Assembly: GCA_964577465.1 (NCBI GenBank) | Contig: CAZNZF010000004.1 | Coordinates: 834-64,833 of the forward strand | DNA length: 64,000 nucleotides | Direction: 5' to 3' | From: an uncultured bacterium | GTDB lineage: Bacteria > RBG-13-66-14 | Shown here: positions 14,224 through 45,939 of the stretch, one piece after another | Layout of the letters: each line of letters starts with the position of its first letter | How positions within the stretch are numbered: position 1 is the first letter of the stretch | Made by a program: the position numbers and the translations under genes | The notes under the pieces: model-generated | Databases searched by the model: none | Seen by the model: only the letters and a program-made list of their open reading frames with translations | Told to the model about the DNA's origin: nothing

Positions 14224-15282
14224 TTACGGGACGGTCACCGTGTGGCACGCCGTGCAATCCGAACCCTGGACGCCGTAGAGGCCGTGCACGTCGCCGTCGG
14301 CTCCGGTGAACAGGCAACGGATTCCGCCCGCCCCGGTCTCGGTCAGCTCCTCGTGACATACCAGGCAGTCCCGGCCGCCCAGCGGCGGATGCTCGCCCAC
14401 CAGTCCCATGTCGGGGTATTCGTCCAAAACCTCGCTGGCGCCGCCGCGCTGGAAGCCGAACTCGTGGCAGCGGAAGCAGGTGCTGGCAGGCAGCGAGGGA
14501 TGCGCTTCGCTCCACGGGGTCCGGCGGTAGGCGAAGACGTAGCGGTCGCCGCCGGCGCGCATCTTATCCAGGCGCGTATCCCCCGGCGTCACGGCGTCGG
14601 CCTGCGGAGCGTGGGGGTTGTGGCAGTCCGAGCAGTGGTGGGTGCCGGGGAAGAGGCCGGCGGGAACGACCGCGCCCTCGGCGTCGACCCGGTCCACGGA
14701 GTGCCAGAAGTAGTTCACCAGCCGGGGGTCGTCCAGGTGGCAGGTCATGCAATTCTCGTCGAGCACCGCCCCGTGGGCGGCGACGCCCACCGGGTTCCGC
14801 GGGCCTTCCCAGTGGCCGTGGCAGCGGTAGCAGAGGCCCCACTCGGCCCCCGGAGTGTTGTTGGAGCCCTGGGGGACGGCGAAGAAACCGTAGGCCGCGT
14901 AGAGCCCGAGCCAGCCCAGGATGAACAGGCCGCCGAGGACGGCCGTCACCCGCTTGGCCTTGACCGTCCGGCGGTCGCCGGGGTCCAGGTGGGGGATGAA
15001 GAACAGCAGGATGACGAAGCCGACGGCGAGGCCGATGCCGACGGCCACCAGCCAGCCGGGCAGGACGCCCAGGCTGTGGTAGATGAAGCTCTCGGGCTCC
15101 CCGCCCCCCTTGGGGTCGGCGGCCGGCCCCGCGACCCCGGGCCAGACGAGGGCCGCGACCACCAACAGGACCACCAGGATGAGCCCCACCAGGAGCTCGA
15201 ACATGGCGAAGTCGGGGAAGAAGGGCTTGTCCTTGGGCGGCTCCTTCTCCCTGCGCCGGAAGATTTTCAAGGTTTTCGCCAT
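14224..15282 (-). CDS. Cytochrome bc-complex subunit IV-like membrane domain fused to a hexaheme c-type cytochrome
   Basis: Three N-terminal TM helices. Six CxxCH motifs (CYRCH, CMTCH, CSDCH, CFRCH, CLVCH, CTACH). Lies immediately downstream of cytochrome b. Confidence 0.7.
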   Translation of the reverse strand: MAKTLKIFRRREKEPPKDKPFFPDFAMFELLVGLILVVLLVVAALVWPGVAGPAADPKGGGEPESFIYHSLGVLPGWLVAVGIGLAVGFVILLFFIPHLDPGDRRTVKAKRVTAVLGGLFILGWLGLYAAYGFFAVPQGSNNTPGAEWGLCYRCHGHWEGPRNPVGVAAHGAVLDENCMTCHLDDPRLVNYFWHSVDRVDAEGAVVPAGLFPGTHHCSDCHNPHAPQADAVTPGDTRLDKMRAGGDRYVFAYRRTPWSEAHPSLPASTCFRCHEFGFQRGGASEVLDEYPDMGLVGEHPPLGGRDCLVCHEELTETGAGGIRCLFTGADGDVHGLYGVQGSDCTACHTVTVP

Positions 15283-15286
15283 CGGT

Positions 15287-15967
15287 TTACAGCGGTTCGG
15301 CGATTCCCTGACGCCGTATCATCACGAAGTGGAACAGGAGCAGGACTAAAATCACCAGGGGCAGCACGATGACGTGGTTGTCGAAGAAGAAGCCCAACGC
15401 CTCGCCGCCCACCGGCGTCACAGTGGTGACGATTCCGGCGAGGAGGTCGCCGACGAGGGGAATCTGCTTGAGCCCCGCGACGATGGAGGCGGCGATTTCG
15501 AACCCCCGCTGGTCCCAGGGGAGGACGAAGCCGGAGATGTAGAACCCGGCGGTGGTGACCAGGAGCAGCACGCCGGCAATCCAGTTCAGCTCGCGCGGCT
15601 TTTTGTAGGCCCCGGTCAAAAAGACGCGCACCATGTGGGCCACGATTAAGACCATCATCACGTTGGCGGCCCAGTGGTGAATGCCCCGGACGAGCCAGCC
15701 CAGCCATACGTCGTTCATGATGTAGCCGATGGACTCCGCCGCCCCGTCGGGCGTGGGCCGGTAGTGCTGGAGGAGGATGAGCCCGGTGACCACCAGGACC
15801 AAAAAGGTCACCAGGGTCAGCCCGCCGAGGCAGTAGTACCACTTCCTGGCCCAGGGGTGGACCGGCTTCTGTATGGCCTCGACGACCCAGCGCTTAACGC
15901 GGAAGCGCTCGTCGAGCCACTTCAGCCACCGGCTTTCGCCTATTTTCTTACGGGTCGCTTCGGACAT
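15287..15967 (-). CDS. Cytochrome b (b6/QcrB-type, N-terminal four-helix heme-bearing part)
   Basis: 226 aa. Conserved His pairs in TM helices (..RGIHHWAANVMM.. / ..PWDQ..), typical of split cytochrome b6. Confidence 0.8.
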   Translation of the reverse strand: MSEATRKKIGESRWLKWLDERFRVKRWVVEAIQKPVHPWARKWYYCLGGLTLVTFLVLVVTGLILLQHYRPTPDGAAESIGYIMNDVWLGWLVRGIHHWAANVMMVLIVAHMVRVFLTGAYKKPRELNWIAGVLLLVTTAGFYISGFVLPWDQRGFEIAASIVAGLKQIPLVGDLLAGIVTTVTPVGGEALGFFFDNHVIVLPLVILVLLLFHFVMIRRQGIAEPL

Positions 15968-16011: not shown

Positions 16012-16878
16012 TTAGAAAGAGTCGAAGTACGTTTCCCAGCCGCCGTCCTCGCGCATCACGCAGAATTTTCCCGTCCCGTCCAGCGCCGCGATGTAGTAGC
16101 GGTCCTCGCCCTCGTGGACCAGGGACCCCACCTCGAAGGGCGGTTCGCCGGGGAGGGGCTCCCCCAGGGTGACGTAATCGCCATCCTCGTCTGAATAAAC
16201 CTGCCCCGCGGCGTCGGTGACCATGACGAAGACGTTCAGGGTTTCCGGCTCGTAGAACCCGGTCACGGAATACGGGGCGGCCCCGGTGTCGTGCATGACC
16301 GCGTGGGTTTCCCAGTTATCATCGAAGCGCGTGTAGAGCGCGCCTTCGGCATCCACGGCCAGGAAGAGGGTGACGCCGGTCGGGGCGTAGTGCAGGACGT
16401 CCAGGTCGTAGGGCGGCGTTCCGACGATGGGGTCCGCGGCGGTCTCCCAGGTGTCGCCGTACCGCCAGAGCCGGCCCCCCGAATCCAGGGCGAAAAGCTC
16501 CACCGCGCCGTCGGCCTCCGCGTACCCCCCGAGGCGGTAGGGAGCCTCCCCGGGGAGGGCGTCCCCCTCGGTCCGCCACTCGTCGCCGCTGACCTCGTAG
16601 AGCCGGCCCGCGGAGTCCAGGACGAAGATGTTGACCATTCCGGGCGTGTCCGGCCGGTTCAGCACCAGGAGGTCGTAGGGGCCCCCGCCCGGGCAGGGGG
16701 TGTTCACCGCGCTCCAGCCTCCGGTTTTCCCCTGGTGGAGCTGTCCGGCTTCGTCCAGGGCGAAGATGACGTCGGTGTCGGAGTCGGGTACGTACACCGC
16801 GCTGAGCCGCGCGGCGAAAGCCGGGGCTGCGGCGATTACTACGAGCAGGATAATAGCTTTATGAATACGCAACCGCAC
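16012..16878 (-). CDS. Secreted beta-propeller-like repeat protein A (paralog of B)
   Basis: ORF 16012..17040 trimmed to a GTG start (MRLRIHKAIILLVVIAAAPAFA signal peptide) 9 nt after the stop of gene B, with GGAGGA upstream. ~6 repeats of ~45 aa (..PY.L....LD..G.LY....W..). Confidence 0.55.
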   Translation of the reverse strand: MRLRIHKAIILLVVIAAAPAFAARLSAVYVPDSDTDVIFALDEAGQLHQGKTGGWSAVNTPCPGGGPYDLLVLNRPDTPGMVNIFVLDSAGRLYEVSGDEWRTEGDALPGEAPYRLGGYAEADGAVELFALDSGGRLWRYGDTWETAADPIVGTPPYDLDVLHYAPTGVTLFLAVDAEGALYTRFDDNWETHAVMHDTGAAPYSVTGFYEPETLNVFVMVTDAAGQVYSDEDGDYVTLGEPLPGEPPFEVGSLVHEGEDRYYIAALDGTGKFCVMREDGGWETYFDSF

Positions 16879-16892
16879 GGTTCCTCCACACC

Positions 16893-17891
16893 TCACTCGA
16901 AGGAGTCGCAGAGCGTGACCCACCCGCCGTCGGGCTTCATGATAAAGAGCGCTCCGGTCGAGTCCACCGCGAAAATCATGTGTGTGTCGCGGCTCTGTGC
17001 CCGGTACACTGCCAGGTCCAGGGGGGGCGTTCCGCCGCACGGCTCACCGAACGGCTCGTACGCGTCGTCCTGGGGAAGGTAGAGCCGACCGGTACCGTCC
17101 AGGACCTGGAGCTCGGTGAAGACCCTCCCGTCGGCGGCGGATTTGATGAAGCCGTCCAGCCGGTAGGGCGCCGTGCCGCCGGTGATTTGGCCAAACTCCT
17201 CCCAGCCGGCATCCGTGCACCGGCTGATGCGGCCCGTCTCGTCAATCACGACGATGTACGTCTCCCCGAGGGCGGCGATGTCGGTGGTGGTCAGGGCCAG
17301 GAAGTCGGTGGGGGCGGCACCGGTGTAATCCACGTCGAAGGGGTACGGTTCCCAGACGAGCTTCAGTGCGTCGAAGAACCACAGGCGGCCGTCGCCGTCC
17401 AGCGCGATGGGGTACACACCGGACACCTTCGGGTCCTGGGCGGAGGACAACTGGTAGGGCGGCGGTCCCGGAACGGGCTTGCCCTTGGGATTCCAGCCCG
17501 TGTGGGTCAGGCTGTAGAGCTGCCCCGCGCCGTCCAGGGCGAGGAAGGCCCAGTTTTCAGCCTGCTGGTCCCAGTGCAGCACCAGCTCGTACGGACCGTC
17601 GCCGGGGCAATTTTCACCCGATGTAACCCAGTTCCACCGCTTCCCCTCGATGTAGTACCCGCCAGTGGAGTCCCACCTCAGAACCTCGTCCCGCTCCACG
17701 GACGACCCCTCCCGCGTGTAACCGGCCAGCTCCAGCTCCAGGTCGCCGCCGGGGCGGCGGTGGAACGTCCCGGAGTCGTCCACGACCCCGATGATGTTCT
17801 GGTTCGTCGCCGGATTCCACGCCAGGTCCAGGTCCAGGGCGCGGCCCGAGACCGCGGTCAGAACAAGAATGCAGACGGGGAGTGGCTTCAT
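16893..17891 (-). CDS. Secreted beta-propeller-like repeat protein B
   Basis: Signal peptide MKPLPVCILVLTAVSG. Same repeat architecture, and a C-terminus (..DGGWVTLCDSFE) like that of A (..DGGWETYFDSF). Confidence 0.6.
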   Translation of the reverse strand: MKPLPVCILVLTAVSGRALDLDLAWNPATNQNIIGVVDDSGTFHRRPGGDLELELAGYTREGSSVERDEVLRWDSTGGYYIEGKRWNWVTSGENCPGDGPYELVLHWDQQAENWAFLALDGAGQLYSLTHTGWNPKGKPVPGPPPYQLSSAQDPKVSGVYPIALDGDGRLWFFDALKLVWEPYPFDVDYTGAAPTDFLALTTTDIAALGETYIVVIDETGRISRCTDAGWEEFGQITGGTAPYRLDGFIKSAADGRVFTELQVLDGTGRLYLPQDDAYEPFGEPCGGTPPLDLAVYRAQSRDTHMIFAVDSTGALFIMKPDGGWVTLCDSFE

Positions 17892-17910
17892 CTGGTGCCG
17901 CCGTTCGGGG

Positions 17911-19719
17911 CTAGCCCGTTTTGTACCGATAGTCGGGCAGTATCATGGGGCTCGTCCGGTCGGTCTCGACGCCGGCCTCCTTCAGCTCCCGTTCGTACCT
18001 CTCCACGTGGGCGAGGGTGAGCTCGCCGACCTCGGCGCCACGGGCGAATTTGGCCGCCGCGATGCCCGCGCGGCGCCCGAAGACGGTGATGTCCAACAGG
18101 CTGTTGCCCATCAGCCGGTTGCGCCCGTGTATCCCACCGGCGACCTCGCCGGCGGCGAAGAGCCCCGGGATTTGCGTCGAGGTGTCGGGTTTTATCGCCA
18201 GCCCGCCGTTCTGGTAGTGCAGGGTCGGGTAAACGAGCATCGGCTCCTTGGAGATGTCTATCCCGTGCCGCATGAACTGCTTGTACTTGGCCGGGAGCTC
18301 GTGCTGAATGGTGCCCGGCCCCTGGATGATTTCTATCATGGGCGAATCGAGCCAGACGCCGTGGCGGCCGGTGGGGGTCAGGACTCCCTTGCCGCGTTCC
18401 AGGCACTCGCGCATGAGGGCGGAGGACTCCACGTCGCGGGGCTCCTTGGGGAAGACGAAGTCCTCGCCGTCCCGGTTGACCGGCTCGGCGCCCAGGCCGC
18501 GGACCTTCTCCGTGATTAGGAGCCCTATGTTCTGCTCCGGATACGCCGCCCCGGTGGGATGGTATTGGATGGAGTCCATGAAGCGCAGCCCCACGCCGAC
18601 CCGGTAACCGAGGATGAGCCCGTCGGCGGTGGCGCCGTAGTGGTTGGTGGTCGGGAAGCCCTGGATGTGCAGCCGGCCGATGCCGCCGGTGGCGATGACC
18701 GTGGACTTGGCCCGGACGATTTTGAAGTCGCCGGTCTCCATGTTCTTCATCACGGCGCCGCCGCAGTGCCCCGCGTCGTCCAACAGGAGCTCCACCACGG
18801 GGGAGAACTCCACGACCTCTATCTGCGGGCGGTTGCGTATCTCGTCGCGCAGCACGCGCATTATTTCGGCGCCGGTCATGTCCCCGGCCGAGTGCATGCG
18901 CTTGCGGCTGGTGCCGCCGCCGTGGAGGGTGTACATGACGCCCTCGGCGTCCTTGCCGAACATGACGCCCAGCCGTTCGAGCCACTCGATGACCATCGGC
19001 GCGTCGTTGGTGAGTGCGGCGACCAATTCCCGGTCGTTGGAAAAGTGGCCTCCGCCGACGACGTCGAGGAAGTGGATGACCGGGTTGTCCTGGGGCTTGT
19101 CCGCCGCCTGGATGCCGCCCTCGGCCATGACCGTGTTGGAGTCTCCGTGGCGGAGCTTGGTCACCAGCAGGACCTTGGCCCCCTCCTCCTGGGCTATGAG
19201 CGCGGCCGAGGCCCCCGCCCCTCCGGCCCCGATGACCAGAACGTCGACGTCGTAGTTCGGTTTCCCGAGCTCGATTTGGGCATCGGCCAGGAGGGAGTGG
19301 GCCTCGATGAGGTCGGCGAACTCATCGGGCACCCGCTCACCCCTGTTCACCCCGACGACCAGCGGGCGCATCCCGGTGTCCTTGTAGTCCGGGTGGAACT
19401 TCTTCAGGACGCGCTCCCGCTCCGCCATCGTCATCGGCTTGAAGTAGCCGATGCCGTCGAGCTTCTCCAGTTCCTGGGCGTCGGCGGTGTTGACGTTGGT
19501 CTTGCCCGGCTCGTCGGTGAGGGATACCTGGCCCTTGATGGCCTCGAATATCTCGGCGTCTATGCCGGGCACGCGGGTCAGGTCGCGGATGTCGCGGAAG
19601 GGGCCCTTGTCCTCGCGGTAGGCGACGATGCGCTTGGGCGCCAGGCGCTTGGCGATGCGCTTCTCCCGGGTGGCGGCCACCTTCTCCGCCAGCTCCTTCA
19701 GTTCGGGGGTGTAACCCAT
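17911..19719 (-). CDS. Succinate dehydrogenase / fumarate reductase flavoprotein-like FAD oxidoreductase with an N-terminal helix-hairpin-helix extension
   Basis: GAGGAGASAAL dinucleotide fold. ..GLFAAGEVAGGIHGRNRLMGNSLLDITVFGR.. resembles SdhA/FrdA. The N-terminal ~100 aa have ComEA-like HhH motifs. Start trimmed to ATG (GAGGAG RBS); the ORF begins at a TTG at 19746. Confidence 0.65.
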   Translation of the reverse strand: MGYTPELKELAEKVAATREKRIAKRLAPKRIVAYREDKGPFRDIRDLTRVPGIDAEIFEAIKGQVSLTDEPGKTNVNTADAQELEKLDGIGYFKPMTMAERERVLKKFHPDYKDTGMRPLVVGVNRGERVPDEFADLIEAHSLLADAQIELGKPNYDVDVLVIGAGGAGASAALIAQEEGAKVLLVTKLRHGDSNTVMAEGGIQAADKPQDNPVIHFLDVVGGGHFSNDRELVAALTNDAPMVIEWLERLGVMFGKDAEGVMYTLHGGGTSRKRMHSAGDMTGAEIMRVLRDEIRNRPQIEVVEFSPVVELLLDDAGHCGGAVMKNMETGDFKIVRAKSTVIATGGIGRLHIQGFPTTNHYGATADGLILGYRVGVGLRFMDSIQYHPTGAAYPEQNIGLLITEKVRGLGAEPVNRDGEDFVFPKEPRDVESSALMRECLERGKGVLTPTGRHGVWLDSPMIEIIQGPGTIQHELPAKYKQFMRHGIDISKEPMLVYPTLHYQNGGLAIKPDTSTQIPGLFAAGEVAGGIHGRNRLMGNSLLDITVFGRRAGIAAAKFARGAEVGELTLAHVERYERELKEAGVETDRTSPMILPDYRYKTG

Positions 19720-19795
19720 CGAATACTCCTCTGGGAATCGCTTCAATCGGGGCCGCCCGCGGGCGGGATGACCCCGAGCCGTTTCGGGGGAGGCG

Positions 19796-20494
19796 TCAAT
19801 CGGGTTCGCGGTCGGCCTGGGTCTCCTTGTATCGCCGCGTGAGCTCCTCGTCCTTCGCCTGGATGAGATGGGCCAGCTCCTCGTCGTACCTGCCGTTTTT
19901 TATCTCCTCGACCCGCGCCGTGAGGTCGGGCGCCTTGGGGCGCATGTGGCGCGCGTAGAGGCGCCGGGCGAGGATGCCGATGTTGTACTGCACGTTCTCG
20001 CCGGGACACCGGCTGGCGCACAGCCCGCACATGAGGCACTCGAAGGAGAGCTCGGCCACCCGCTCCAGCTCGCCCTTCATCGCCGCCGACATGTACTCCA
20101 TCACCTCCAGGTCCTGGGGGCAGACCTTCGAGCAGGCGTTGCACCCCATGCAGCGCAGCAACTCCGGGTAGCGCTCGATGAGGGCCTCCGCGGTGGGCTC
20201 CAGCTTCTCGATGTCGTAGGTGGCCTTGTTGGCCGGGTAGAAGGGTATCTGGGCCAGGTACATCTCCGGCTCGACCACGGTCTGGCAGGCGAGGCCGCTC
20301 TTGAGCTTGTAGTCGCCGGCGGTGCGGTACACCGTCCCGCAGGCGCCGCAGATTCCCCCGCGGCAGCCGCAGCCCCGGATGAACTGGTAACCGGAATACT
20401 CTATCGCCTTGAGGATGGTCAGCGTCTCGGGCACCTGGTACTTCTTGCCCATGATGTAGATGTCTATCATCCTCGCTTTGCCCTCTTCACCCAT
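19796..20494 (-). CDS. SdhB/FrdB-like iron-sulfur subunit ([2Fe-2S] plus two [4Fe-4S]/[3Fe-4S] motifs)
   Basis: CGCRGGICGACG, CMGCNACSKVCP and CLMCGLCASRCP. Confidence 0.7.
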   Translation of the reverse strand: MGEEGKARMIDIYIMGKKYQVPETLTILKAIEYSGYQFIRGCGCRGGICGACGTVYRTAGDYKLKSGLACQTVVEPEMYLAQIPFYPANKATYDIEKLEPTAEALIERYPELLRCMGCNACSKVCPQDLEVMEYMSAAMKGELERVAELSFECLMCGLCASRCPGENVQYNIGILARRLYARHMRPKAPDLTARVEEIKNGRYDEELAHLIQAKDEELTRRYKETQADREPD

Positions 20495-20558
20495 GACGTT
20501 GCTCCAGGTTTGGCTTACGGTTGACGACGAAAAGGACCCTCGGCTCGGGAGCCGCGTC

Positions 20559-21029
20559 CTACCAGGCGATGAGGATGCCCAGAAGTACGCCGAACAAAAA
20601 GCCGATGAGCGCGGCGAAGTAGCGGTCGAGCTGGTTGAGGGTCTTGCTCTTGGGCAGGGTTTCCACCACCCGCTTGTCCACGATGTACTGCTTGATGTCC
20701 AGGTCGGTCTGGGGGCAGGCCAGGGCGCAGGAGTAGCACTGCTCGCAGTCCTCGCCCACGATGGACTCCAGCGCCATGGAGGTGCGCTGGGCCGTGCGTT
20801 CCAGCCGCTCCGGCTCGCGCCGCAGCACCGGGCAGGAATCCACGCAGTTGCCGCAGGCGATGCACCCCTTGTCCGAGGCGAGGTCCCGGCCCTCGGAGTG
20901 GAGGCGGTTGTAAAGCTCCATGCCGGTGGACAGGAGCCTGGTCCGCGCCACCGGGGGCTCCTTCATGTCGAAGATGCGGTCCAGGGTCCGCTGGATTTGT
21001 TTCAGGTCGCGCTCTTTGGTGGCTGGCAT
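20559..21029 (-). CDS. Di-cluster [4Fe-4S] ferredoxin with a C-terminal transmembrane anchor
   Basis: CIACGNCVDSCP and CEQCYSCALACP, followed by a hydrophobic tail FAALIGFLFGVLLGILIAW. Confidence 0.6.
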   Translation of the reverse strand: MPATKERDLKQIQRTLDRIFDMKEPPVARTRLLSTGMELYNRLHSEGRDLASDKGCIACGNCVDSCPVLRREPERLERTAQRTSMALESIVGEDCEQCYSCALACPQTDLDIKQYIVDKRVVETLPKSKTLNQLDRYFAALIGFLFGVLLGILIAW

Positions 21030-21071: not shown

Positions 21072-21818
21072 TTACGGCGCCAGGGCCGCGGCGAGGTCCG
21101 TGGAGAACCGGCCCAGGCAGTCGTTGGTCGCGGCGGAGACGACCCGGTTGTACGCCTCCAGGTCCGCGTCCTCGGCGTAGCCGGAGTATGTGCCGCTCAT
21201 GACCGTCCGCCCCCCGGCGTCGGTGAGCGCGTAGTCTATGTCCACCTCGGCGGCCAGGTACTCGCCGGCGAAACCGCCGATGGTTCCCGCCGTCGTGGCC
21301 GCGGCCCCCCCGCCCAGGGTCCACCAAATCCAGGCCGGGAAGCCGACCTCGGAGCAGGTGGCGAGGTTGGCGATGATGTAGACGCCCAGAGCGCCCATCC
21401 CGACGACGAAGGCGACGGAACCGGCGATGGCCAGGATTATCCAGCCCGTCGGCGTGCGGACCGCCAGACAGAAGCCGGTCAGGTTGCCCTTCAGGACGTA
21501 GTCGCCTTCCTCCGAGATGGATACCGCGCCGAAGAGGCGGCCGGCTTTCAGGTAATCCGCCGTGGCCAAGGTCAGGTACTCCTCGAGGTTCTCCACGTGG
21601 GGCGGCGGCGGGGTGATGATTTCGCCCATGTCCCGGCCGTACTTGGTCGGGCCGGTGACGATGAGCGACTCGACCCGCAGGGTGCCGGGGATGGACACCG
21701 CGCCCGGTTTCGCCGTCGGGACGAAGCCCGTTATCCTCTGGTACTGCGTCGCGCACGAGGTCACCAGAAACACGTAGAGCATCGCCGTGCACACCGCGCG
21801 CAGAAATGCTTTCCGCAT
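21072..21818 (-). CDS. Lipoprotein with C-terminal TM helices, hypothetical
   Basis: Trimmed to MRKAFLRAVCTAMLYVFLVTSC (GGAGG RBS). Gly-rich TM region near the C-terminus. Confidence 0.5.
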   Translation of the reverse strand: MRKAFLRAVCTAMLYVFLVTSCATQYQRITGFVPTAKPGAVSIPGTLRVESLIVTGPTKYGRDMGEIITPPPPHVENLEEYLTLATADYLKAGRLFGAVSISEEGDYVLKGNLTGFCLAVRTPTGWIILAIAGSVAFVVGMGALGVYIIANLATCSEVGFPAWIWWTLGGGAAATTAGTIGGFAGEYLAAEVDIDYALTDAGGRTVMSGTYSGYAEDADLEAYNRVVSAATNDCLGRFSTDLAAALAP

Positions 21819-22032
21819 TACGTCACCCTCCCCGGACCGGTCAATCTTTCGGCTGACGCGCGAGCCCCCGACCAACGGGATTTAAACCGTAAACCGCCGT
21901 ATTCTCCGCGTACCTGCCGGCCGGCCGACGGCTATTGCCATGCTACCAGATGACGCCCCCCGGCGGAACCCCCGTCGTCGGGCCTCGTTTGTCGAAAAAA
22001 ACCACCGGTGTCGCGACCCGCTCAGGTTCCAT

Positions 22033-23163
22033 TTACATTCCGCCGGACCCGCCGGCCACCTTGCGCGCCAGGCGGTTGACCACCTCGGAGAGGTCCTCCA
22101 CCGCCCCGGTATGCTCCGCCGTCTCGTTCAGCACGACCTGGGCGTCCGACACGTCCACCCCGCGCACGGACAGGATGTACTTGGAGCCCAGCTTCGAGAG
22201 CGAGCCGATGAGGATGACCTCGACGTCCAGAATCTGGCCGGCGGTTACGGCGCACTCCACGTCGGTGCAGCCCGACAGGACGAAGCCCTGCTCCTCGAAG
22301 ATTTCCCCCATGCGGCTGCGCTCGATGACGACGAAGCGCCGGGTGTTGAACAGGGCGGAGCGGAATAGCTCGCTCACCGTGGCCGCCTCGGATTCGGGGA
22401 CGCCGATGGGCTCGAAGTCCAGGATGGCGATGCGGGTCGCCTCGCTCAGATGGGCGCCGGCCCCGCCCCCCGGGGCGAAGTCCAGGTCGCGGACCACCGG
22501 GGTCAGCATGGTGAAGGCGCCGTCGAGGGCCTCGTTGACGGCCTGGCGCATCGCCTCGTCGAAGCCTTCGCCGTCCTCGGAGCGGCCCCGGCCGTAGAAC
22601 GTCCCCTCGTAGAAGGTCTCCCGGGTGTAGGGGTCGAGGAGCTCGACGTCCAGCTCCAACTCAGCCTTGACATAGGGAATTAAAAGCCCGGGCACGAGGC
22701 AGGCGGTGGAGAGACCGAGATAGACGGGCCAGGTTTTATGTAGCTCATTATCGGTCGGCTGAGCCAGGCTCATGACCGCGCCGGCTCCGTAAATGCCGCC
22801 GCATATATCCAGAACCAGCCCCCAGCCCTCGTTCTCCTGTTCGCAGTTGAAGCTGCGCAGGTCCAGCTTCAGGACCAGGTCGGATTCGCCGCTGTTGACG
22901 ATTTCCGAGAACAGCTCCTTTTCGAAGGCGTAGTACTTGCACGACTCGGTGAGGTAGTCGGTCAGGTTGGGGAACCGGGTGTCAGTGGTGAACGTGCCGT
23001 GGAGGTTGACCGGCTCGATGAAAACCGTGTAGGGCGTGGGTTCCTCTTCGGGTTTGGCCGTGGGCCGGTACTGGCTTAAGGTGTGCACCTCGACGGAGCA
23101 GCCCGCGACGAGAACGCCGAGCATAAGCGGAACGATGACAAACCTGAAATTCTTCTTCGACAT
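22033..23163 (-). CDS. Lipoprotein with a C-terminal CsgG/LpoB/TolB-N-like domain
   Basis: MSKKNFRFVIVPLMLGVLVAGC lipobox. C-terminal ..RIAILDFEPIG...RFVVIERSRMGEIFEEQGF...ILIGSLSKLGSKYILSVRGVDVSD.. follows the pattern of CsgG-like periplasmic domains. Confidence 0.45.
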   Translation of the reverse strand: MSKKNFRFVIVPLMLGVLVAGCSVEVHTLSQYRPTAKPEEEPTPYTVFIEPVNLHGTFTTDTRFPNLTDYLTESCKYYAFEKELFSEIVNSGESDLVLKLDLRSFNCEQENEGWGLVLDICGGIYGAGAVMSLAQPTDNELHKTWPVYLGLSTACLVPGLLIPYVKAELELDVELLDPYTRETFYEGTFYGRGRSEDGEGFDEAMRQAVNEALDGAFTMLTPVVRDLDFAPGGGAGAHLSEATRIAILDFEPIGVPESEAATVSELFRSALFNTRRFVVIERSRMGEIFEEQGFVLSGCTDVECAVTAGQILDVEVILIGSLSKLGSKYILSVRGVDVSDAQVVLNETAEHTGAVEDLSEVVNRLARKVAGGSGGM

Positions 23164-23291: not shown

Positions 23292-24272
23292 TTAGAGCTC
23301 GAAGAGGCTCCGCTTGGCGGCGATGGCCTTCCCCGCCATGGAGACGGCGCTGATGCCGTTGGGGCAGCGCGCGGCGCAACGGGCGCAGCCCACGCAGTAC
23401 TTGGCCAGCTCCTCCACCCGGGCGTAGTTGCCCAGCCGCGTCTCCAGCACCATGGTCATCGGCAGCGGCACGTCGTCCTCCACCCGTCCCACGGGACACA
23501 CGCCGACGCAGGCCTGGCAGTTGTAGCAGTTCAGGCTCTCGCCGGTGTTGCGGACCACGACGCCGGAGATCATGAAGTCCAGCATGAAGATGATGCCGAA
23601 GATGATGCAGAGCTGGAAGAGGGTCTCGCGGGATACGTCTCCCACGGTGAGCCACTGCAGCGCCAGGATGGGCCAGGGCTGCTCCCCGGCGCCCCCGGCC
23701 TCGGCCAGCGCCTCCCGGCTGGCCGCGACGATGCCGTTGGTGGTGAAGGTGGCTCCGGAAATCGCGTCTACCTCCAGGCTCCTCGACGACGCGATGGCGG
23801 CGGGAACCTCGACCAGGGACCGTTCCACCGCGGGCCGGCCCCCGCTCTCCGACTGCGAGGTGACGGAAAGCTCGAGCGAACCGTCCTGCCCCACCACCGC
23901 CGTGACCTCGAGGGGCTCGACGGTGTTCTTCCCCACCCCGTGGCCGGTGTAGGTGCCGGGCTGGAGGGCATCGAAATCGATGCGCTCGGCGACCGTCAGG
24001 ACGTAACCCGCGGCCATGAAAAGCGTCGGAACCCCCAGGATGAGAAGCACCAGGACGAGGCGGTTCCTCTTCGCCCACCGGGAGGCGGGCCCCACGACGA
24101 GGAAGCTCGCGCCCAGAATCACGAGAAGGATCAAGCGGGAGGCGGGGAAGAATACCGCGATGAGGATGGTGGCGATGGCGATGCGCCAGGGGCGGCTCGG
24201 CATGAGCTTCCCCACCAGCGCCTTCCCCCTCCCGGGCGCTACACCGGCCGTGGTCGCCCTAGCGGACGGCAA
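23292..24272 (-). CDS. Membrane protein with an FMN-binding domain (flavinylation-type SGAT motif) and a C-terminal 2x[4Fe-4S] ferredoxin domain (mini NosR-like)
   Basis: TM helices. ISGATFTTNGIVAAS is an FMN_bind-like domain. CYNCQACVGVCP and CVGCARCAARCP. The true start may be an internal Met (~24203). Confidence 0.55.
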   Translation of the reverse strand: MPSARATTAGVAPGRGKALVGKLMPSRPWRIAIATILIAVFFPASRLILLVILGASFLVVGPASRWAKRNRLVLVLLILGVPTLFMAAGYVLTVAERIDFDALQPGTYTGHGVGKNTVEPLEVTAVVGQDGSLELSVTSQSESGGRPAVERSLVEVPAAIASSRSLEVDAISGATFTTNGIVAASREALAEAGGAGEQPWPILALQWLTVGDVSRETLFQLCIIFGIIFMLDFMISGVVVRNTGESLNCYNCQACVGVCPVGRVEDDVPLPMTMVLETRLGNYARVEELAKYCVGCARCAARCPNGISAVSMAGKAIAAKRSLFEL

Positions 24273-24903
24273 CGTTCACCTCCCTCTCCTTGATGATGCC
24301 CTGCATCTCGTTGTAGAGCTTGAGAACCTTCTCGTAGCCCGGTTTGGAGTACCGGGCGAGGGCGGCCGCCTCCGTCAAGGGCTCCCGGCTCTGCGGGTCC
24401 ACGAAGCCCTCGTTCAGGACGAGCCCGGCATCAATCTTGCCCGAGGCCAGGGCCTCCAGCGTCAGCTCCTGCATCCGGGCCGCCAGCTCGGGGATGTTGA
24501 TTTCCAGGATGCACCACTTGGTGCAGTTGCCGCACTGGGTGCAGCGCAGCCCGCCCTGGCGGATGAACCGCTCGTAGTCGGCCGTCCGCGACGCGACGAC
24601 CATCTCCACCGGGTAGATGTACTCGGGGCAGTTCTGCCCCTCGGGCTGAGACAAGACGCGCATGCAGGCGCGGTCCTCCAGGCAGTAAACCGAGTAGCCG
24701 GTGCCGGAGAATATCGCCTTGAAGATGATGAAGGCCAGGCTGAGGGCGATGATGACCATGGCGATGCGGTTGAGGTTCTTGGTGAGCATCCGGTGCTGGG
24801 ACTTGGAGATGAACTGGTAGCGCCGGACGCCGGGCAGAACCTCGATTTCCTCCCGGGGTGGGCCGTAAACGAGCCGCTCGTCTTTGTCGTTCTTTTTTGC
24901 CAT
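24259..24903 (-). CDS. Single-pass membrane ferredoxin-like protein
   Basis: One TM helix, then CLEDRAC...NCPEY and CTQCGNCTKWC Cys motifs. Overlaps the downstream gene by 14 nt (operon). Confidence 0.45.
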   Translation of the reverse strand: MAKKNDKDERLVYGPPREEIEVLPGVRRYQFISKSQHRMLTKNLNRIAMVIIALSLAFIIFKAIFSGTGYSVYCLEDRACMRVLSQPEGQNCPEYIYPVEMVVASRTADYERFIRQGGLRCTQCGNCTKWCILEINIPELAARMQELTLEALASGKIDAGLVLNEGFVDPQSREPLTEAAALARYSKPGYEKVLKLYNEMQGIIKEREVNVAVR

Positions 24904-24939: not shown

Positions 24940-25106
24940 TCAGGTAATCATGTACAGAATCGCCGCGATGATTCCGCCCAGGGCCCCCTGCAGGAGGCCC
25001 TTGCGCGTGCGGAAATCCATGGCGTACGCGATGACCGCCCCGGAGAATGCGCCGCCGAGGAGAAAGACGATCCAGGTTAAAAATGCGCCGGGTTCCAGCG
25101 TTCCCC
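24940..25106 (-). pseudogene. Orphan duplicate of the C-terminal ~50-aa module of the upstream membrane protein, with no canonical start codon
   Basis: Reads ..AFLTWIVFLLGGAFSGAVIAYAMDFRTRKGLLQGALGGIIAAILYMIT*, paralogous to ..ATWITFLVGGAFSGMVITFSL...LLQGAFGGIIAGALLLVT* at the end of 25107..26879. Lies in a different frame, immediately after that gene's stop. Confidence 0.4.
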
Positions 25107-26879
25107 CTAGGTCACTAGGAGCAGGGCTCCGGCGATGATCCCGCCGAAGGCCCCCTGCAGGAGGTAGGCGAGGAGGGGTCCGGAGCTGACGAAGCCCGAG
25201 GCCTGGTCGGGCCAGAACAGGGAGAAGGTGATGACCATGCCGGAGAAGGCGCCGCCCACCAGGAACGTTATCCAGGTGGCCAGGTTTTTCTCCTTCTCCT
25301 GGGTCGGCGTGCGTCGCTTCTTGAACGTGGCGGGATTGATGAACTTTATCATTCCCAGGTTGAGCACGAACAGGCCGGCGAGCAGGCCGAAAAAGATGAG
25401 CAGGTTCTCCAGGCGGAAGGGGTTGTGGGTGAGCACCAGGAATCGCATCACCAGCGCCGCCAGGGGGGTCATGGCCGCCATGATGCCGTAGCTCTGGGCG
25501 TTGCGCAGGTATCCGATATCGGAGCGCACCATCCCCTCGGAGATGGTGCCGATGCCGCCGATGGGACTCGGACCGCAGCTCGCCGCCGCGTTCACGATGA
25601 AGGCGGCCAGCACGATGGCCAGCTGGTTGTAGGTCAGAAGGCCCGAGGCGTTGGGCATCCAGCCGGTGGCCGGCCCCATGGCCACCACGATGGGGAGCAG
25701 CGCCGCCGCCAGAATCCGCCCGCAGGGCATGGGCATGATGGTCTCGAGCTGGACGAAGAGGGCTATCATACCCGCCACGCCCAGGCCGACCCCCGCGACC
25801 TTGAACTCCGACAGCCAGACGAGCACCTGGCTCAGGGCCTTGAACCCACCCGAGACCGCCAGCGAGCCGGCCATCAGGAATCCGGCCACCAGGGCGGTGA
25901 TGGGGTGGAGGATTATCCCGGCGATGACTTGACGGATGGAGAGCCGGGCGATGAGCATGATGACGACCGTGGCCACCAACAGGGTGGTGGTGATGGGGGT
26001 CTTGCCGAAGAGCCCGAAGACCGCCCCGATGAGGGCCACCAGGAAGATGCCCAGGGAGATGTAGCCGACGAGGGGCGCCTTGAACTTCCGGGCGATGACC
26101 TCCTCTTCGTGCGCGCGGGCCAGGCTCTCGTCGGAGGTCGAGGCGGCGCCACCGCTCACCGCGAGCTGACGACCCTCGGTGAGCCGGATTTTCTCCTCCA
26201 TGTCGAACTTGGTAACGAAGAGGCTGATGAAGAGCGCGGTGAAGGCGGTGCCGATCATGATGCCGAATTCCTGGGCGCTGGTCAGGAATCCGAGCTGCTG
26301 GAGGAAGCCCTCGCCGATTTGCCCGATGCCGCCGATCTGGCTGGGTCCGCAACTGGCCGCGGCGTTGACCGCCAGCGCGGTGACCAGAACCACCATCTGT
26401 TTCTTCGTTATCAGTCGCACGCCCTCGGGGCCGAGGGTGATGATGACGGGCAGGAGCGCCGCCGCCTGAATCCGTCCGCAGGGCATGGCGAAAATGGTGG
26501 CGAACTGGGCGATGAAAACCATCGTGCCCGCCATGCCGAGAGGGGTGCCGCGCATCTTGTTGATGACGACGCGCAGCGCGGCGAAGCCCCCGGAGCCTTC
26601 CAAGGCGCCGGCGACCAGGAACCCGCCGGCCATGGCCATGATGGGCAGGAGGATGACGTTGGACCCCACCGCCGAGCCCAGGGAGAGCATCTCGGAGAGG
26701 GACCCGCCGTCCAGCCAGATCGCCAGGGCGGTCATGACGATGTTGACCAGCGCCCCGACTATGAGCAGCGACTGAAGCGGTATCGGAATCAGCCGTCGTC
26801 CGCCCACCATGATGAGCGGGCCCAGGACGGTGAAGACGAAGACGAGAAGACTCAGGATGCCGACAATCTCGTGGGCCAA
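25107..26879 (-). CDS. Large polytopic membrane protein with internal tandem duplication (transporter-like, family not identified)
   Basis: 590 aa. Two homologous halves, each with MPCGRI..AALLP and NAAASCGPSxIGGIG motifs. The overlapping alternate-frame ORF 24940..26904 is rejected. Confidence 0.55.
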   Translation of the reverse strand: MAHEIVGILSLLVFVFTVLGPLIMVGGRRLIPIPLQSLLIVGALVNIVMTALAIWLDGGSLSEMLSLGSAVGSNVILLPIMAMAGGFLVAGALEGSGGFAALRVVINKMRGTPLGMAGTMVFIAQFATIFAMPCGRIQAAALLPVIITLGPEGVRLITKKQMVVLVTALAVNAAASCGPSQIGGIGQIGEGFLQQLGFLTSAQEFGIMIGTAFTALFISLFVTKFDMEEKIRLTEGRQLAVSGGAASTSDESLARAHEEEVIARKFKAPLVGYISLGIFLVALIGAVFGLFGKTPITTTLLVATVVIMLIARLSIRQVIAGIILHPITALVAGFLMAGSLAVSGGFKALSQVLVWLSEFKVAGVGLGVAGMIALFVQLETIMPMPCGRILAAALLPIVVAMGPATGWMPNASGLLTYNQLAIVLAAFIVNAAASCGPSPIGGIGTISEGMVRSDIGYLRNAQSYGIMAAMTPLAALVMRFLVLTHNPFRLENLLIFFGLLAGLFVLNLGMIKFINPATFKKRRTPTQEKEKNLATWITFLVGGAFSGMVITFSLFWPDQASGFVSSGPLLAYLLQGAFGGIIAGALLLVT

Positions 26880-26930
26880 AAATGCTCCAACGCAGGTTGT
26901 TCAATCCGCCCGGATGAGCTCAGCAATCCG

Positions 26931-27314
26931 TTAGGGTGTACTTCCGGGACCCGGAGCCAGCAGCTTCTCGATGCGCTTGACCACGTCGAGGGGGTTGAAC
27001 GGCTTGGTCACGTGCAGCGCGATGCCGATCTCCCGGCTGATTCTCTTGTAGAGCGGTCCCGAGTGACCCGTGATTATGGCGACGGGGGTCGACGACAGAA
27101 GCTCGTCGGCCATCAGGTCGTGGTACAGCTTGTAGCCGTCCAGGCCCGGCATAAGGAGGTCCAGGATGATGACGTCGGGCCGTTCCCGCATCGCCGCGGA
27201 GAGGACGGTGGCGGGATCGGAGAGGGAGATGGTTTCATGCCCCCGGCTCTTGAAGGCGAGTCCCAGCGTCTCGACGATGTGCCGTTCGTCGTCCACGATC
27301 ATGATTCGGGCCAT
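26931..27314 (-). CDS. Stand-alone response-regulator receiver (CheY-like)
   Basis: MIVDDERHIVETL.. with an acceptor Asp in ..VIILDLLMPGLDG.. and ..TKPF... Confidence 0.8.
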   Translation of the reverse strand: MARIMIVDDERHIVETLGLAFKSRGHETISLSDPATVLSAAMRERPDVIILDLLMPGLDGYKLYHDLMADELLSSTPVAIITGHSGPLYKRISREIGIALHVTKPFNPLDVVKRIEKLLAPGPGSTP

Positions 27315-27334
27315 TTAGGATGCCTCCCGGCACA

Positions 27335-27757
27335 TCATCGAACGCCCGTGCCCGCCTCGCGGTTCACGGCCGGCTCGTCGGCGGACCCCGGCGCTCGTCC
27401 GAGCAGGCGCTCCACCTGCTCGACCACCGCGTACGGCTTGAAGGGCTTGGTCAGATGCAGCCCGGCGCCTAACCCATCGCTGATGCGCCGGTAGATTTCG
27501 TCGGGCTTCGCGGTGAGCAGGACCACCGGAATCCGCGACACCCGTTCCTCCTCGCCCAGACGGTTGAGCACCTCGTAGCCGTCCATACCGGGCATCATGA
27601 GGTCGAGGATGATGGCGTCGGGTCTTTCCCGGTCGGCGAGGGGGACGCACAGCGTCGCGTCGGACACGCCCACGACCTGGTAGCCCCGTTTCTCGAAGGC
27701 CAGGGAGAGTGTCTCGACGATGTGCCGCTCGTCGTCCACTATCATTATCTTCGGCAT
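27335..27757 (-). CDS. Stand-alone response-regulator receiver (CheY-like), tandem paralog
   Basis: N-terminus identical to the neighbour over MIVDDERHIVETL. ..AIILDLMMPGMDG.. and ..TKPF... Confidence 0.8.
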   Translation of the reverse strand: MPKIMIVDDERHIVETLSLAFEKRGYQVVGVSDATLCVPLADRERPDAIILDLMMPGMDGYEVLNRLGEEERVSRIPVVLLTAKPDEIYRRISDGLGAGLHLTKPFKPYAVVEQVERLLGRAPGSADEPAVNREAGTGVR

Positions 27758-27780
27758 GGATCCCGCCCCGCCCCTTTCTT

Positions 27781-27831
27781 TTTACCGGGGCATTACTCGC
27801 TTCGTTTGGTTTTCAAGGGGTCTCAAGCCCC
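27781..27831 (+). repeat. Repeat family B copy (TTTACCGGGGCATTACTCGCTTCGTTTGG, missing one CTTCG unit) followed by a degenerate family A half-palindrome (CAAGGGGTCTCAAGCCCC)
   Basis: Intergenic, upstream of the REC gene at 27757. Confidence 0.6.
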
Positions 27832-27985
27832 CCGGTTCCCGGCCCTCCGCCGTGTAGCTGATTTAATTCCCACCACGCAAGTGTATAATACACCGCCGCC
27901 CGTTCCCGCGCAACCCCTCAGACGCGGCGACTTCCGATTTTACACCTCTTCAATCCCCGCGGCCGCGGCCGTTCCGAGGCCGCGA

Positions 27986-28960
27986 TTACCCCGGGTAGTC
28001 GCCCTTCCGGTCCGCGGCCCCGCCCTCCGTAGTTCCCCGTCGCTCGTGGACCACTATGTTTCCGGGTTTGCCCTTGCCGAACTTCTTCAGCTCGGTGACG
28101 ACGTCGGCAATCTCGGCGGTGGTGGTGAAGCGCCGCTTCTCGCTCGACACCAGCTCGATGGTCAGGGTGAGCGTGGCGGGATACCGGCGCAGGCAGCCGG
28201 TGCGGTCCTTTATCTCGTAGTAATCCCGCCTCAGGTCGGCCTCGTCGAAGTAGTCCTTCACGCCCTCGCCGAAGAGCTCGATGACCCGGTCCGCCAGCTT
28301 CTCGGCCTCCTGGTGGTAGCAGAGCATCATGAAGTCGTCCCCGCCGATGTGCCCGACGAAGTCCTTCGGCTTGCCCAGCGCCCGGTTGGTCTGGACGAGG
28401 CAGTGCGTGAGAAGACGGATGACGGAATCGCCGCGGGCGTAGCCGTAGTAGTCGTTGAAGCTCTTGAAGCGGTCGATGTCGGCGTAGAAGAGGGAGTAGG
28501 GTTTGCCGGAGCGGATGACTTCCTTGAGCCGATGCTCGATCTCCAGGTTTCCCGGCAGGCCCGTCAGCGGGTTGCAGCCGAGTTGGTAGCGCGTGCGCGA
28601 CAGGACCATCTTCGCCCGGGCCAGGAGCTCCCGCTGGGAGAAGGGCTTGGCGATGTAGTCGTCGATGGAGTGCTCGACGCCCCGCTCGAGGTCGATGATG
28701 TCCTGCTTGGCCGTCAACAGAATCACCGGGATGTGGGCGGTCTCGAAGTCCTTCTTCAGCTCGGAGCACACCTGATAGCCGTCCATCCCCGGCATCATCA
28801 CGTCCAGGACGACGAGCTCCGGGTTGAAGACCTTGACCTGCTCCAGGGCCTCCTCGCCCGAAGGGCAGGTCAGGACCGTGTAGTTGTCGCCCTCGAATAC
28901 GGTCTTGACGATCGAGCGGATGTCGGGGTCATCGTCAACGACCATCACCCGTGTCGACAT
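27986..28960 (-). CDS. Response regulator with GGDEF domain (PleD-like; GGDDF variant motif)
   Basis: REC domain (VMVVDDDPDI.., ..VVLDVMMPGMDG..) followed by a GGDEF domain with ..HIGGDDFMML... Confidence 0.8.
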   Translation of the reverse strand: MSTRVMVVDDDPDIRSIVKTVFEGDNYTVLTCPSGEEALEQVKVFNPELVVLDVMMPGMDGYQVCSELKKDFETAHIPVILLTAKQDIIDLERGVEHSIDDYIAKPFSQRELLARAKMVLSRTRYQLGCNPLTGLPGNLEIEHRLKEVIRSGKPYSLFYADIDRFKSFNDYYGYARGDSVIRLLTHCLVQTNRALGKPKDFVGHIGGDDFMMLCYHQEAEKLADRVIELFGEGVKDYFDEADLRRDYYEIKDRTGCLRRYPATLTLTIELVSSEKRRFTTTAEIADVVTELKKFGKGKPGNIVVHERRGTTEGGAADRKGDYPG

Positions 28961-45867: not shown

Positions 45868-45939
45868 TCCGCGCCTTGTCTCCATTGATTCTTGACCAAA
45901 GGGGTCGTCCTTTATATCATGGGGGCCGTGAGGACGGCG

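Follow-up and report, generated by a model that had tools for sequence, protein, structure and literature searches.

A candidate membrane-associated fumarate reductase of the 'short FrdA' family with a tail-anchored HdrC-like ferredoxin and a conserved membrane module

The 64,000-nucleotide stretch of contig CAZNZF010000004.1 analyzed here (the window), whose proteins have close relatives assigned to Candidatus Coatesbacteria, carries at 17911..21029 on the minus strand a three-gene cassette encoding a flavoprotein, an iron-sulfur (Fe-S) subunit and a tail-anchored ferredoxin. With a probability of about 0.6, we read this cassette as the cytoplasmic part of a membrane-associated fumarate reductase that works with a membrane module encoded just upstream, a reading built on directly observed gene content, motifs, family placement, co-occurrence and folds. 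The undescribed part is the membrane module accompanying the tail-anchored ferredoxin; published annotations probably already include members of the core enzyme family. A sequence-only reading of the same DNA had described a cassette of three genes; the functional unit reaches at least position 26879 and is ~9 kb, possibly ~13 kb, rather than 3 kb long.

All three genes were present in the order given by that reading, ferredoxin, Fe-S subunit and flavoprotein. Its description of a non-canonical succinate dehydrogenase/fumarate reductase (Sdh/Frd)-like system lacking a cytochrome b or CCG-domain anchor was borne out by operon gene content and Pfam, as no SdhC/D or HdrB-like subunit is encoded in the operon and the sole CCG protein of the window lies 26 kb away. 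The flavoprotein (602 amino acids, aa; 17911..19719) is followed on the map by the Fe-S subunit (232 aa; 19796..20494) and the ferredoxin (156 aa; 20559..21029), all on the minus strand. Owing to the high GC content of the sequence (66%), spurious very long open reading frames (ORFs; 654 and 365 aa, Arg/Pro/Gly-rich) overlap real genes in alternative frames, e.g. 24940..26904 and 17888..18985 on the minus strand, and GC at the third and second codon positions (GC3, GC2) was used to tell the two apart. By this filter all three cassette ORFs were of coding type (GC3 0.91-0.93, GC2 0.41-0.42). The flavoprotein start was placed at the ATG at 19719, preceded by GAGGAG, in preference to the TTG of a 611-aa ORF, and the resulting 602-aa form is on public record as an identical sequence labelled 'succinate dehydrogenase/fumarate reductase flavoprotein subunit'. 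Scans of 13-29.5 kb did not delimit the operon, with 4 promoter-like sites versus 1.7±1.5 and 13 terminator-like sites versus 8.9±3.7 expected from shuffled sequence.

The flavoprotein matched FAD_binding_2 (E 2.5e-72, residues 168-550 in the numbering of the 611-aa ORF) and was roughly equally identical (31-34%) to Escherichia coli FrdA, SdhA and NadB. Its AlphaFold2 (AF2) model (predicted local distance difference test score, pLDDT, 83.8) found E. coli FrdA and SdhA of M. smegmatis Sdh1 as best Foldseek matches (E about 1e-28). The residues known to bind and turn over dicarboxylates were all invariant in the family, namely H387 (within HPTG), T403, E404, R407, R428, H501 and R535 in 602-aa numbering. 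The position of the histidine that carries the covalent flavin adenine dinucleotide (FAD) was occupied by Asn195, in S-N-T instead of the S-H-T of FrdA and SdhA, and this Asn was invariant in 74 family sequences. No Pfam match to Succ_DH_flav_C (PF02910) was obtained; the alignment stops ~130 residues short of the FrdA/SdhA end, and in place of the C-terminal helical domain there is a short helix with a conserved tail, SPMLLPDY (SPMILPDY in the window protein). Gly267, preceded by an invariant His266, takes the position of NadB Glu121, where Frd and Sdh have Phe. FrdA variants without the covalent FAD bond retain fumarate reduction and lose succinate oxidation. The flavoprotein is predicted from its sequence to hold its FAD non-covalently, which by established Frd/Sdh enzymology favors fumarate reduction over succinate oxidation, and the absence of both the covalent-FAD His and the C-terminal domain points the same way. 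Judged on these residues and on gene context, the flavoprotein/Fe-S pair very probably constitutes a fumarate reductase. The sequence-only reading had asked whether the flavoprotein would group inside a characterized family, and none was reached: its scores lay far under the curated NCBIfam cut-offs for TfrA (336 vs 718 bits), the Sdh/Frd model (289 vs 819) and NadB (TIGR00551, 274 vs 453), which ruled out membership in TfrA, NadB, SdhA/FrdA or flavocytochrome c. AprA was rejected as well, as it was not among the PDB sequence matches.

In the Fe-S subunit, a Fer2-like region precedes two CxxCxxCxxxCP motifs (Pfam), and alignment with FrdB/SdhB assigned the cluster ligands to Cys44/49/52/70, C115/118/121/125 and C153/156/159/163, corresponding to one [2Fe-2S] and two [4Fe-4S] motifs. 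Since the extra Cys156 turns the 3Fe-4S motif of complex II into a 4Fe-4S motif (CxxCxxCxxxCP), the third cluster is predicted to be 4Fe-4S. The subunit is devoid of the FrdB/SdhB insertions, carries an added conserved C-terminal tail of ~65 residues and scored only 32 bits against the TfrB model (cut-off 385). The ferredoxin matched Fer4_10 and related Pfam families and has two CxxCxxCxxxCP motifs whose eight Cys were invariant in 18 homologues. Its final 19 residues are hydrophobic (Kyte-Doolittle 2.55) and form a predicted transmembrane helix at residues 138-156 (nt 20562..20618). Comparison by hhalign with the HdrC neighbors of related loci gave a probability of 90% (E 1.5e-6), with NCBIfam HdrC matches below cut-off, and by these profile comparisons the third subunit reads as an HdrC homologue with an acquired tail anchor. 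The description of this ferredoxin as standing in for cytochrome b anchors was thus right in that no such anchor is present; the protein is better described as one among several partner modules that can replace one another. Its family comprises at least 458 clusters of 152-165 aa, and the homologues of Chloroflexi and of some metagenome loci have no tail and are soluble. The enzyme is probably held at the membrane by the tail-anchored ferredoxin, and there is a good case that this protein tethers the pair there and works with the conserved membrane module.

This module is encoded upstream on the minus strand. A 326-aa protein (23292..24272) resembles NosR/NapH by Pfam and by hydropathy and charge, and has homologues in every informative tail-anchor locus. 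It matched FMN_bind (E 9e-7) and Fer4_8, contains the flavinylation motif DAISGAT and is predicted to consist of transmembrane helices, an extracytoplasmic FMN_bind domain (FMN, flavin mononucleotide), one more transmembrane helix and a cytoplasmic HdrC-like di-cluster domain. PF12801 was not matched, and the NapH model only weakly (E 0.005). The ApbE-type motif D-x-x-S-G-A-T is intact in the window, in a close-relative locus (L001) and in Natranaerofaba carboxydovora, and degenerate in loci containing a Qrc-like block. The neighboring 214-aa protein (24259..24903) has one transmembrane helix near its N-terminus, weak Fer4 matches and two Fe-S Cys motifs; in an alignment of seven homologues the N-terminal LPGIRRYQF was conserved and C74, C80, C92, C121, C124, C127 and C131 were invariant. 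It is preceded by a conserved protein of 52 aa with two transmembrane segments (24940..25098), for which genes of 49-52 aa were called at the same position in the close relative and in four of the Qrc-like-block loci (L089-L092); the window has CTG where the close relative has a TTG start. The C-terminal half of this small protein resembles the last helices of the adjoining 590-aa protein.

The 590-aa polytopic membrane protein (25107..26879) has a repeat within its sequence in which the motifs PCGRI and SCGPS are invariant, the latter replacing the SNT motifs of the DASS family. No Pfam family exceeded its cut-off (CitMHS weak, E 4e-4, 20 bits vs 31.9), and every one of its 504 homologous clusters is annotated 'hypothetical'. 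Its AF2 model (pLDDT 80.4) had as top Foldseek matches VcINDY (including fumarate- and malate-bound forms), NaDC3 with succinate, plant dicarboxylate transporters, ArsB and TRAP-M, and those to VcINDY, NaDC3 and NaS1 reached probability 1.00 with E 8e-6 to 1e-4 and TM-scores of 0.4-0.6. Because the model matches VcINDY, NaDC3 and related transporters, the protein is probably a C4-dicarboxylate (fumarate/succinate) transporter of the DASS/IT fold. An RnfA/E- or NqrD/E-like intramembrane Fe-S carrier, considered for its two repeats and four invariant Cys, was rejected, as the model matched DASS/VcINDY, ArsB and TRAP-M and no Rnf or Nqr subunit. Between the ferredoxin and the 326-aa gene lie two genes for predicted lipoproteins of 267 and 376 aa (21072..23163, minus strand), the latter with a CsgG-like segment. 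Their homologues were found only in the close-relative locus, they sit where other lineages carry a Qrc-like NrfC/NrfD/Mo-like/multihaem module, and it is uncertain whether they are part of the system.

The association between module and tail anchor was analyzed across loci. An unbiased scan of metagenomes with the ferredoxin profile returned 80 loci; 25 have the tail, two of these being truncated by the end of their contig, and 53 have a tail-less homologue. Where tail-type loci extend far enough upstream, all 15 have a homologue of the 326-aa protein, versus 0 of the 53 tail-less ones; the N-anchored di-cluster protein likewise co-occurs with the tail-anchored ferredoxin, and of 9 tail-anchor loci that reach far enough upstream for the transporter, 7 encode its homologue. 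A multihaem cytochrome gene adjoins the ferredoxin gene in 17 of the 23 complete tail-type loci. The cassette was also looked for in other genomes, as the sequence-only reading had proposed, and it recurs there: tail-anchored ferredoxin and pair occur in L001, L053, L089-L093 and metagenome loci, and the full membrane module, transporter included, is found in all of these named loci, L093 being that of N. carboxydovora. Chloroflexi homologues (L035, L039, L061 and L072) have neither tail nor module. The Qrc-like-block loci, L053 and the four independent contigs L089-L092, have one common gene order: NHL protein, ~100-aa protein, ~560-aa membrane protein, ~50-aa protein, ~185-aa N-anchored Cys-rich protein, ~325-aa polytopic protein with C-terminal di-cluster domain, NrfC-like, NrfD, molybdopterin-like, multihaem cytochrome c, tail-anchored ferredoxin, Fe-S subunit and flavoprotein. 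The window and its close relative have homologues of the six non-Qrc genes (those for the 590-, 52-, 214- and 326-aa proteins, the ferredoxin and the Fe-S/flavoprotein pair). Altogether the association is spread over the Coatesbacteria-like lineage, Thermodesulfobacteriota, KSB1 and Bacillota. One tail-type locus seen on two contigs (L102/L103; Ga0307380_10005676, Ga0307378_10006143) combines the ferredoxin and the Fe-S subunit with the N-anchored and NosR-like proteins, an NHL protein and a NapC-like cytochrome.

A cultured bacterium carries the minimal set of enzyme and module genes as well. In N. carboxydovora (CP054394), genes for fumarase alpha and beta, two small proteins, the transporter, the N-anchored protein, the FMN_bind/di-cluster protein, the tail-anchored ferredoxin, the Fe-S subunit, the flavoprotein, sucC and sucD are contiguous, with no cytochromes or NrfD nearby. 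This species grows with fumarate as acceptor and forms up to 5.7 mM succinate with formate, has no lipoquinones and no menaquinone genes, and has 'FrdAB' alone annotated, for which its describers stated that the link to the electron donor is unknown (PMC8359318). The published 'FrdAB' is likely the pair in this locus, and the four membrane proteins encoded beside it are obvious candidates for the link to the electron donor.

Within the proposed system, the flavoprotein, with non-covalent FAD and a complete Frd-type dicarboxylate site, would reduce fumarate to succinate, and the Fe-S subunit would wire the FAD through its [2Fe-2S] and two [4Fe-4S] clusters. The HdrC-like ferredoxin would prolong this electron chain, tether the enzyme to the membrane by its C-terminal helix and serve as the docking point for the module, comprising the NosR-like protein (its di-cluster domain facing inward and its FMN_bind domain, which in this lineage may be flavinylated, facing outward), the N-anchored di-cluster protein, the 52-aa protein and the DASS-fold transporter, which probably exchanges fumarate and succinate. 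Electrons would enter the module from membrane or periplasmic carriers, here likely a cytochrome b/hexahaem c pair and in Thermodesulfobacteriota/KSB1-type loci the Qrc-like NrfCD/Mo-like/multihaem module; that they do so from either source via the NosR-like protein is a tentative proposal that we hold to be rather doubtful. Substrate and direction we strongly infer, and that the proteins form a complex we also infer. Fumarate reduction is supported by the fumarase, malic enzyme, SucCD and 2-oxoacid:ferredoxin oxidoreductase (Kor) genes that neighbor the family loci. A bolder and still less likely proposal is that the ferredoxin, the NosR-like protein, the N-anchored protein and the pair form a previously undescribed, perhaps energy-conserving respiratory complex connecting extracytoplasmic carriers (multihaem cytochromes, covalent FMN) with cytoplasmic fumarate without a quinone or cytochrome b anchor.

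Several observations weigh against a membrane-linked fumarate reductase of this kind. In most lineages the FMN motif has degenerated, hydropathy and charge leave the topology of the N-anchored 214-aa protein ambiguous, and the conserved membrane proteins have no recognizable quinone-, NAD(P)H- or haem-binding domain. N. carboxydovora holds the minimal set yet has no quinones and no neighboring cytochromes, and it formed little succinate with most donors (PMC8359318). His266-Gly267 replace the Phe of Frd and Sdh, so that a related dicarboxylate may be the substrate; the link of the cytochrome b/multihaem pair to the enzyme rests on synteny with a single close relative; and the L102/L103 locus has no flavoprotein gene beside its Fe-S gene.

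The frequency of multihaem cytochromes and Qrc-like modules among the neighbors, the usual role of FMN_bind domains in extracytosolic electron transfer (PMC8238504) and the reversibility of Sdh and Frd in vitro would all fit an enzyme running oxidatively, as a succinate dehydrogenase whose electrons leave by way of the ferredoxins and the FMN domain for multihaem cytochromes in the periplasm or acceptors outside the cell. We regard this as unlikely, as the invariant Asn at the covalent-FAD position disfavors succinate oxidation according to established Frd/Sdh enzymology, the third cluster is predicted to be of the low-potential 4Fe-4S type and fumarate serves as an acceptor in N. carboxydovora (PMC8359318). 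Quite unlikely, in our view, is a soluble reductase of the thiol- or Hdr-type (TfrAB- or type E-like) whose CCG partner is encoded elsewhere, e.g. at 47234..48571, and whose tail serves only for localization. TfrA is the closest curated model, HdrB and HdrC stand beside the pair in 35 and 34 of 84 related loci, and the window does encode an HdrD-like protein; however, this gene lies 26 kb from the operon and has a DUF2229/HGD-D gene as its partner, the surroundings of the operon contain no homologue of Hdr or MvhD, and the module with which the tail anchor strictly co-occurs is a different one, bound to the membrane.

The near equidistance of the family from FrdA, SdhA and NadB (31-34% identity) bears on whether the flavoprotein might act on L-aspartate or on another unsaturated or substituted dicarboxylate rather than on fumarate/succinate. 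A loop of NadB-like length (HPTG..YPEQN), the invariant His266-Gly267 at the position that separates NadB (Glu121) from Frd/Sdh (Phe) and the low succinate yields of N. carboxydovora (PMC8359318) point in the same direction, but the NadB-specific Glu is missing, an SdhB-like partner is always present, the neighbors are fumarase, SucCD, Kor and malic enzyme, and the co-encoded transporter has the fold of a dicarboxylate transporter, which together make another substrate very unlikely. Finally, two lipoprotein genes intervene in the window and L102 has the membrane genes without an adjoining flavoprotein gene, as would be expected if the three-gene cassette were self-contained and the upstream membrane genes mere neighbors. 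Against the co-occurrence of the NosR-like gene (15/15 vs 0/53 metagenome loci) and the same association in the Coatesbacteria-like lineage, Thermodesulfobacteriota, KSB1 and Bacillota, such an arrangement is highly improbable, and the membrane-associated fumarate reductase with its upstream module is the reading we prefer.

While the cassette had been taken as unusual in its entirety, the flavoprotein/Fe-S core belongs to a very widespread family of anaerobes, the 'short FrdA' family. A scan of species-representative genomes matched relatives in anaerobic bacteria and archaea of at least 597 species, among them the cultured Sporomusa rhizae and Desulfopila sp., and the window flavoprotein is 61-69% identical to members from many phyla. 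It shows all hallmarks of the family, with the N-domain MGYTPE...FHPDY, the C-tail SPMLLPDY, Asn at the His position and the Fe-S gene upstream. That gene lies upstream on the same strand in all family loci but one, and in most it is directly adjacent (within about 250 bp). A phylogeny had been proposed as a check, and in a neighbor-joining tree without bootstrap the family was monophyletic against E. coli SdhA, FrdA and NadB, from which a long branch separated it. Partner types were scattered across this tree, which indicates that partner modules have been swapped within the family. Clustering of neighboring genes across 84 family loci found HdrA in 46, MvhD/FlpD in 43, an FrhB/Flx-like Fe-S protein and HdrB in 35 each, HdrC in 34, an FlxA/NfnA-like protein in 17, Kor subunits in about 15 and SucC in 14. 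In one Chloroflexi locus (L072) malic enzyme and then class I fumarase are encoded directly upstream of the Fe-S/flavoprotein genes. In another Chloroflexi relative (L002, 403..4944) a 1513-aa fusion with GltD-, HdrA- and Fer4-like regions precedes MvhD/Flx-like genes and the pair. A tail-less soluble homologue of the third subunit adjoins the pair in metagenome loci L118-L121 and L123-L153 with no Hdr genes in reach, and this suggests that a three-subunit soluble form of the enzyme exists there.

BLAST with representatives of these neighbor clusters detected no Hdr, MvhD or Flx homologue in the window. Its only CCG protein by Pfam is the HdrD-like protein (47234..48571, plus strand), with a di-cluster (Fer4) and two CCG domains; within 45892..48571 (plus) it follows a DUF2229/HGD-D ('CoA enzyme activase'-type) gene. 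Among described systems, the 'succinate operon' of Pseudoclostridium thermosuccinogenes joins genes for fumarase and Flx-Hdr with a fumarate reductase of two genes and a putative transporter, with electron bifurcation proposed (PMC7282089), and frdABEF of Syntrophobacter fumaroxidans was classed as 'type E' with an FrdB lacking the 3Fe-4S motif (PMC3570798), its products being more abundant with fumarate (PMC5947623). Matched by gene order, published genes annotated as FrdAB, 'type E Frd' or Flx-Hdr-linked 'novel fumarate reductase' probably belong here (PMC3570798, PMC7282089, PMC8359318); the S. fumaroxidans and P. thermosuccinogenes enzymes are probably of the same family by gene order and descriptions, not by sequence. 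Residues, gene context and published physiology and proteomics together support fumarate reductase activity in the 'short FrdA' family.

The window enzyme shares with these Flx-Hdr- and HdrBC-linked reductases (S. fumaroxidans, P. thermosuccinogenes, N. carboxydovora) the N-domain of ~95 aa, the missing C-terminal domain, Asn at the covalent-FAD site, an Fe-S subunit with [2Fe-2S] and two 4Fe-4S motifs and an Fe-S gene that immediately precedes the flavoprotein gene, and N. carboxydovora carries the same six-gene set. Most of the others, however, are paired with HdrB/HdrC or Flx-HdrA/MvhD, whereas the partner in the window is a tail-anchored HdrC-like ferredoxin with membrane proteins. TfrA has non-covalent FAD. 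TfrAB of methanogens is likewise without a membrane cytochrome, TfrA is the top curated model and the window Fe-S subunit resembles the N-terminal half of TfrB, but besides the shortfall in score (336 vs 718 bits) the C-terminal ~120 positions of the TfrA profile were unmatched, and TfrB has CCG domains, which are absent from the window cluster. The classification of complex II-type enzymes follows their membrane anchors. The window enzyme has the FAD and capping fold, the catalytic residues and the order of cluster motifs of types A-E (E. coli FrdABCD, M. smegmatis Sdh1), but differs from them in the absence of the C-terminal domain, of the covalent-FAD His and of an SdhC/D or SdhE anchor, in the 4Fe-4S motif in place of 3Fe-4S and in the extra N-domain. 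No SdhC/D (FrdC/D) anchor was found in the operon or among the conserved neighbors, and no gene for the CCG-domain subunit of type E and TfrAB, a feature present in 35 of 84 related loci, occurs in the cluster.

To our knowledge, this module for membrane attachment and electron input is absent from the A-E/F classification. The papers retrieved described no module that joins an HdrC-like tail-anchored ferredoxin to a small protein of NosR type, another anchored Fe-S protein and a DASS-fold transporter of its own. The NosR/NapH/PceC plan has been described for flavinylated extracytosolic systems, in which FMN_bind domains usually serve extracytosolic electron transfer (PMC8238504). The 326-aa protein resembles these in its outer FMN_bind domain with ApbE-type motif, its transmembrane helices and its inner di-cluster ferredoxin domain, but it is much smaller, with about four transmembrane helices, has no PF12801 and no CX3CP pairs, has lost the FMN motif in most of its relatives and is partnered by a reductase of the cytoplasm, not of the periplasm. 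The module is no rarity, with at least 458 clusters for the ferredoxin and 504 for the transporter in several phyla, and the combination of one flavoprotein/Fe-S core with Hdr-BC, Flx-HdrA or the membrane module cleanly illustrates how modules are exchanged in the bioenergetics of anaerobes. Should the undescribed respiratory complex be real, it would supply the step still missing from accounts of how quinone-free anaerobes such as N. carboxydovora respire fumarate, and since this cultured, quinone-free fumarate respirer holds the minimal set, the question of the electron path is directly testable.

The flavoprotein also contains a helix-hairpin-helix (HhH) segment, which the sequence-only reading had described as a ~100-aa N-terminal extension of ComEA type. 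A ComEA-type HhH match is present (PF12836); the segment is an insertion of ~65 residues, not an N-terminal extension. All family members share a pre-Rossmann N-domain of ~95 residues (MGYTPEMKELIKKVEATRP.R ... FHPDYK ..., 25-sequence alignment), and the extra residues within it (~26-92; 19444..19644, minus strand) occur only in the window protein and its 73-95% identical relatives. As a distinguishing trait the HhH therefore did not hold up: it is restricted to the Coatesbacteria-like lineage and was absent from the 535-560 aa relatives from other phyla in the alignment. An apparent HhH outside this lineage, in L011, was discarded, as the tblastn alignment had run into the upstream Fe-S gene and there is no insertion. 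HHH_3 matched residues 35-74 (E 4.5e-14, 52.8 bits vs a cut-off of 27), PDB matches included ComEA, and pLDDT exceeded 90 across the insert. In native order the insert matched HHH_3 in two pieces (60 bits), while moving its last 22 residues to the front gave a single near full-length match (profile 7-64 of 65, 71 bits), so that it appears to be a circularly permuted (HhH)2 domain. Thus, although the insert shares the significant profile match and PDB matches of ComEA-type domains, it differs from them in its permutation and its location inside the N-domain of a redox enzyme, with nothing pointing to DNA binding. The HhH domains of PsbU and type II secretion system (T2SS) protein K serve protein contacts. 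Because the segment gave weak sub-threshold matches to these two families, a protein-contact role is as plausible as DNA binding; the role of the insert is most likely structural or in protein docking.

Other genes of the window were inspected beside the cluster. A PetB-like cytochrome b (226 aa; Cytochrome_B E 2.6e-41) and a 352-aa protein with three transmembrane helices at its N-terminus and six CxxCH motifs that matched multihaem families (14224..15967, minus strand) are encoded 2 kb downstream of the flavoprotein, in a synteny shared only with the close-relative locus, and form a candidate membrane/periplasmic electron-transfer partner. No homology of the hexahaem protein with the multihaem proteins of L053 and L089-L092 was detected, and the cluster ORFs examined included no Rieske gene; the two proteins are reminiscent of a Cbc-type cytochrome bc module. 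Immediately downstream of the flavoprotein gene, 16012..17891 (minus) encodes two paralogous ~330-aa proteins with repeated 'LDxxGxLY'-type, beta-propeller-like units and no Pfam match, and the L089-L091 clusters are headed by NHL-repeat propeller genes. Just upstream of the cluster, as in the close relative, are two single-domain response regulators and a response-regulator-GGDEF protein (26931..28960, minus), whose position suggests cyclic diguanylate (c-di-GMP) or two-component control of the cluster. An ATP-type phosphoenolpyruvate (PEP) carboxykinase (49643..51430, plus) fits a branch from PEP via oxaloacetate, malate and fumarate to succinate, although the ORFs of the window that were examined included neither a malate dehydrogenase nor a fumarase. 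A giant secreted-looking protein of 2768 aa (35984..44919, minus) adjoins a DUF6529/DUF4079 membrane protein with CxxCH.

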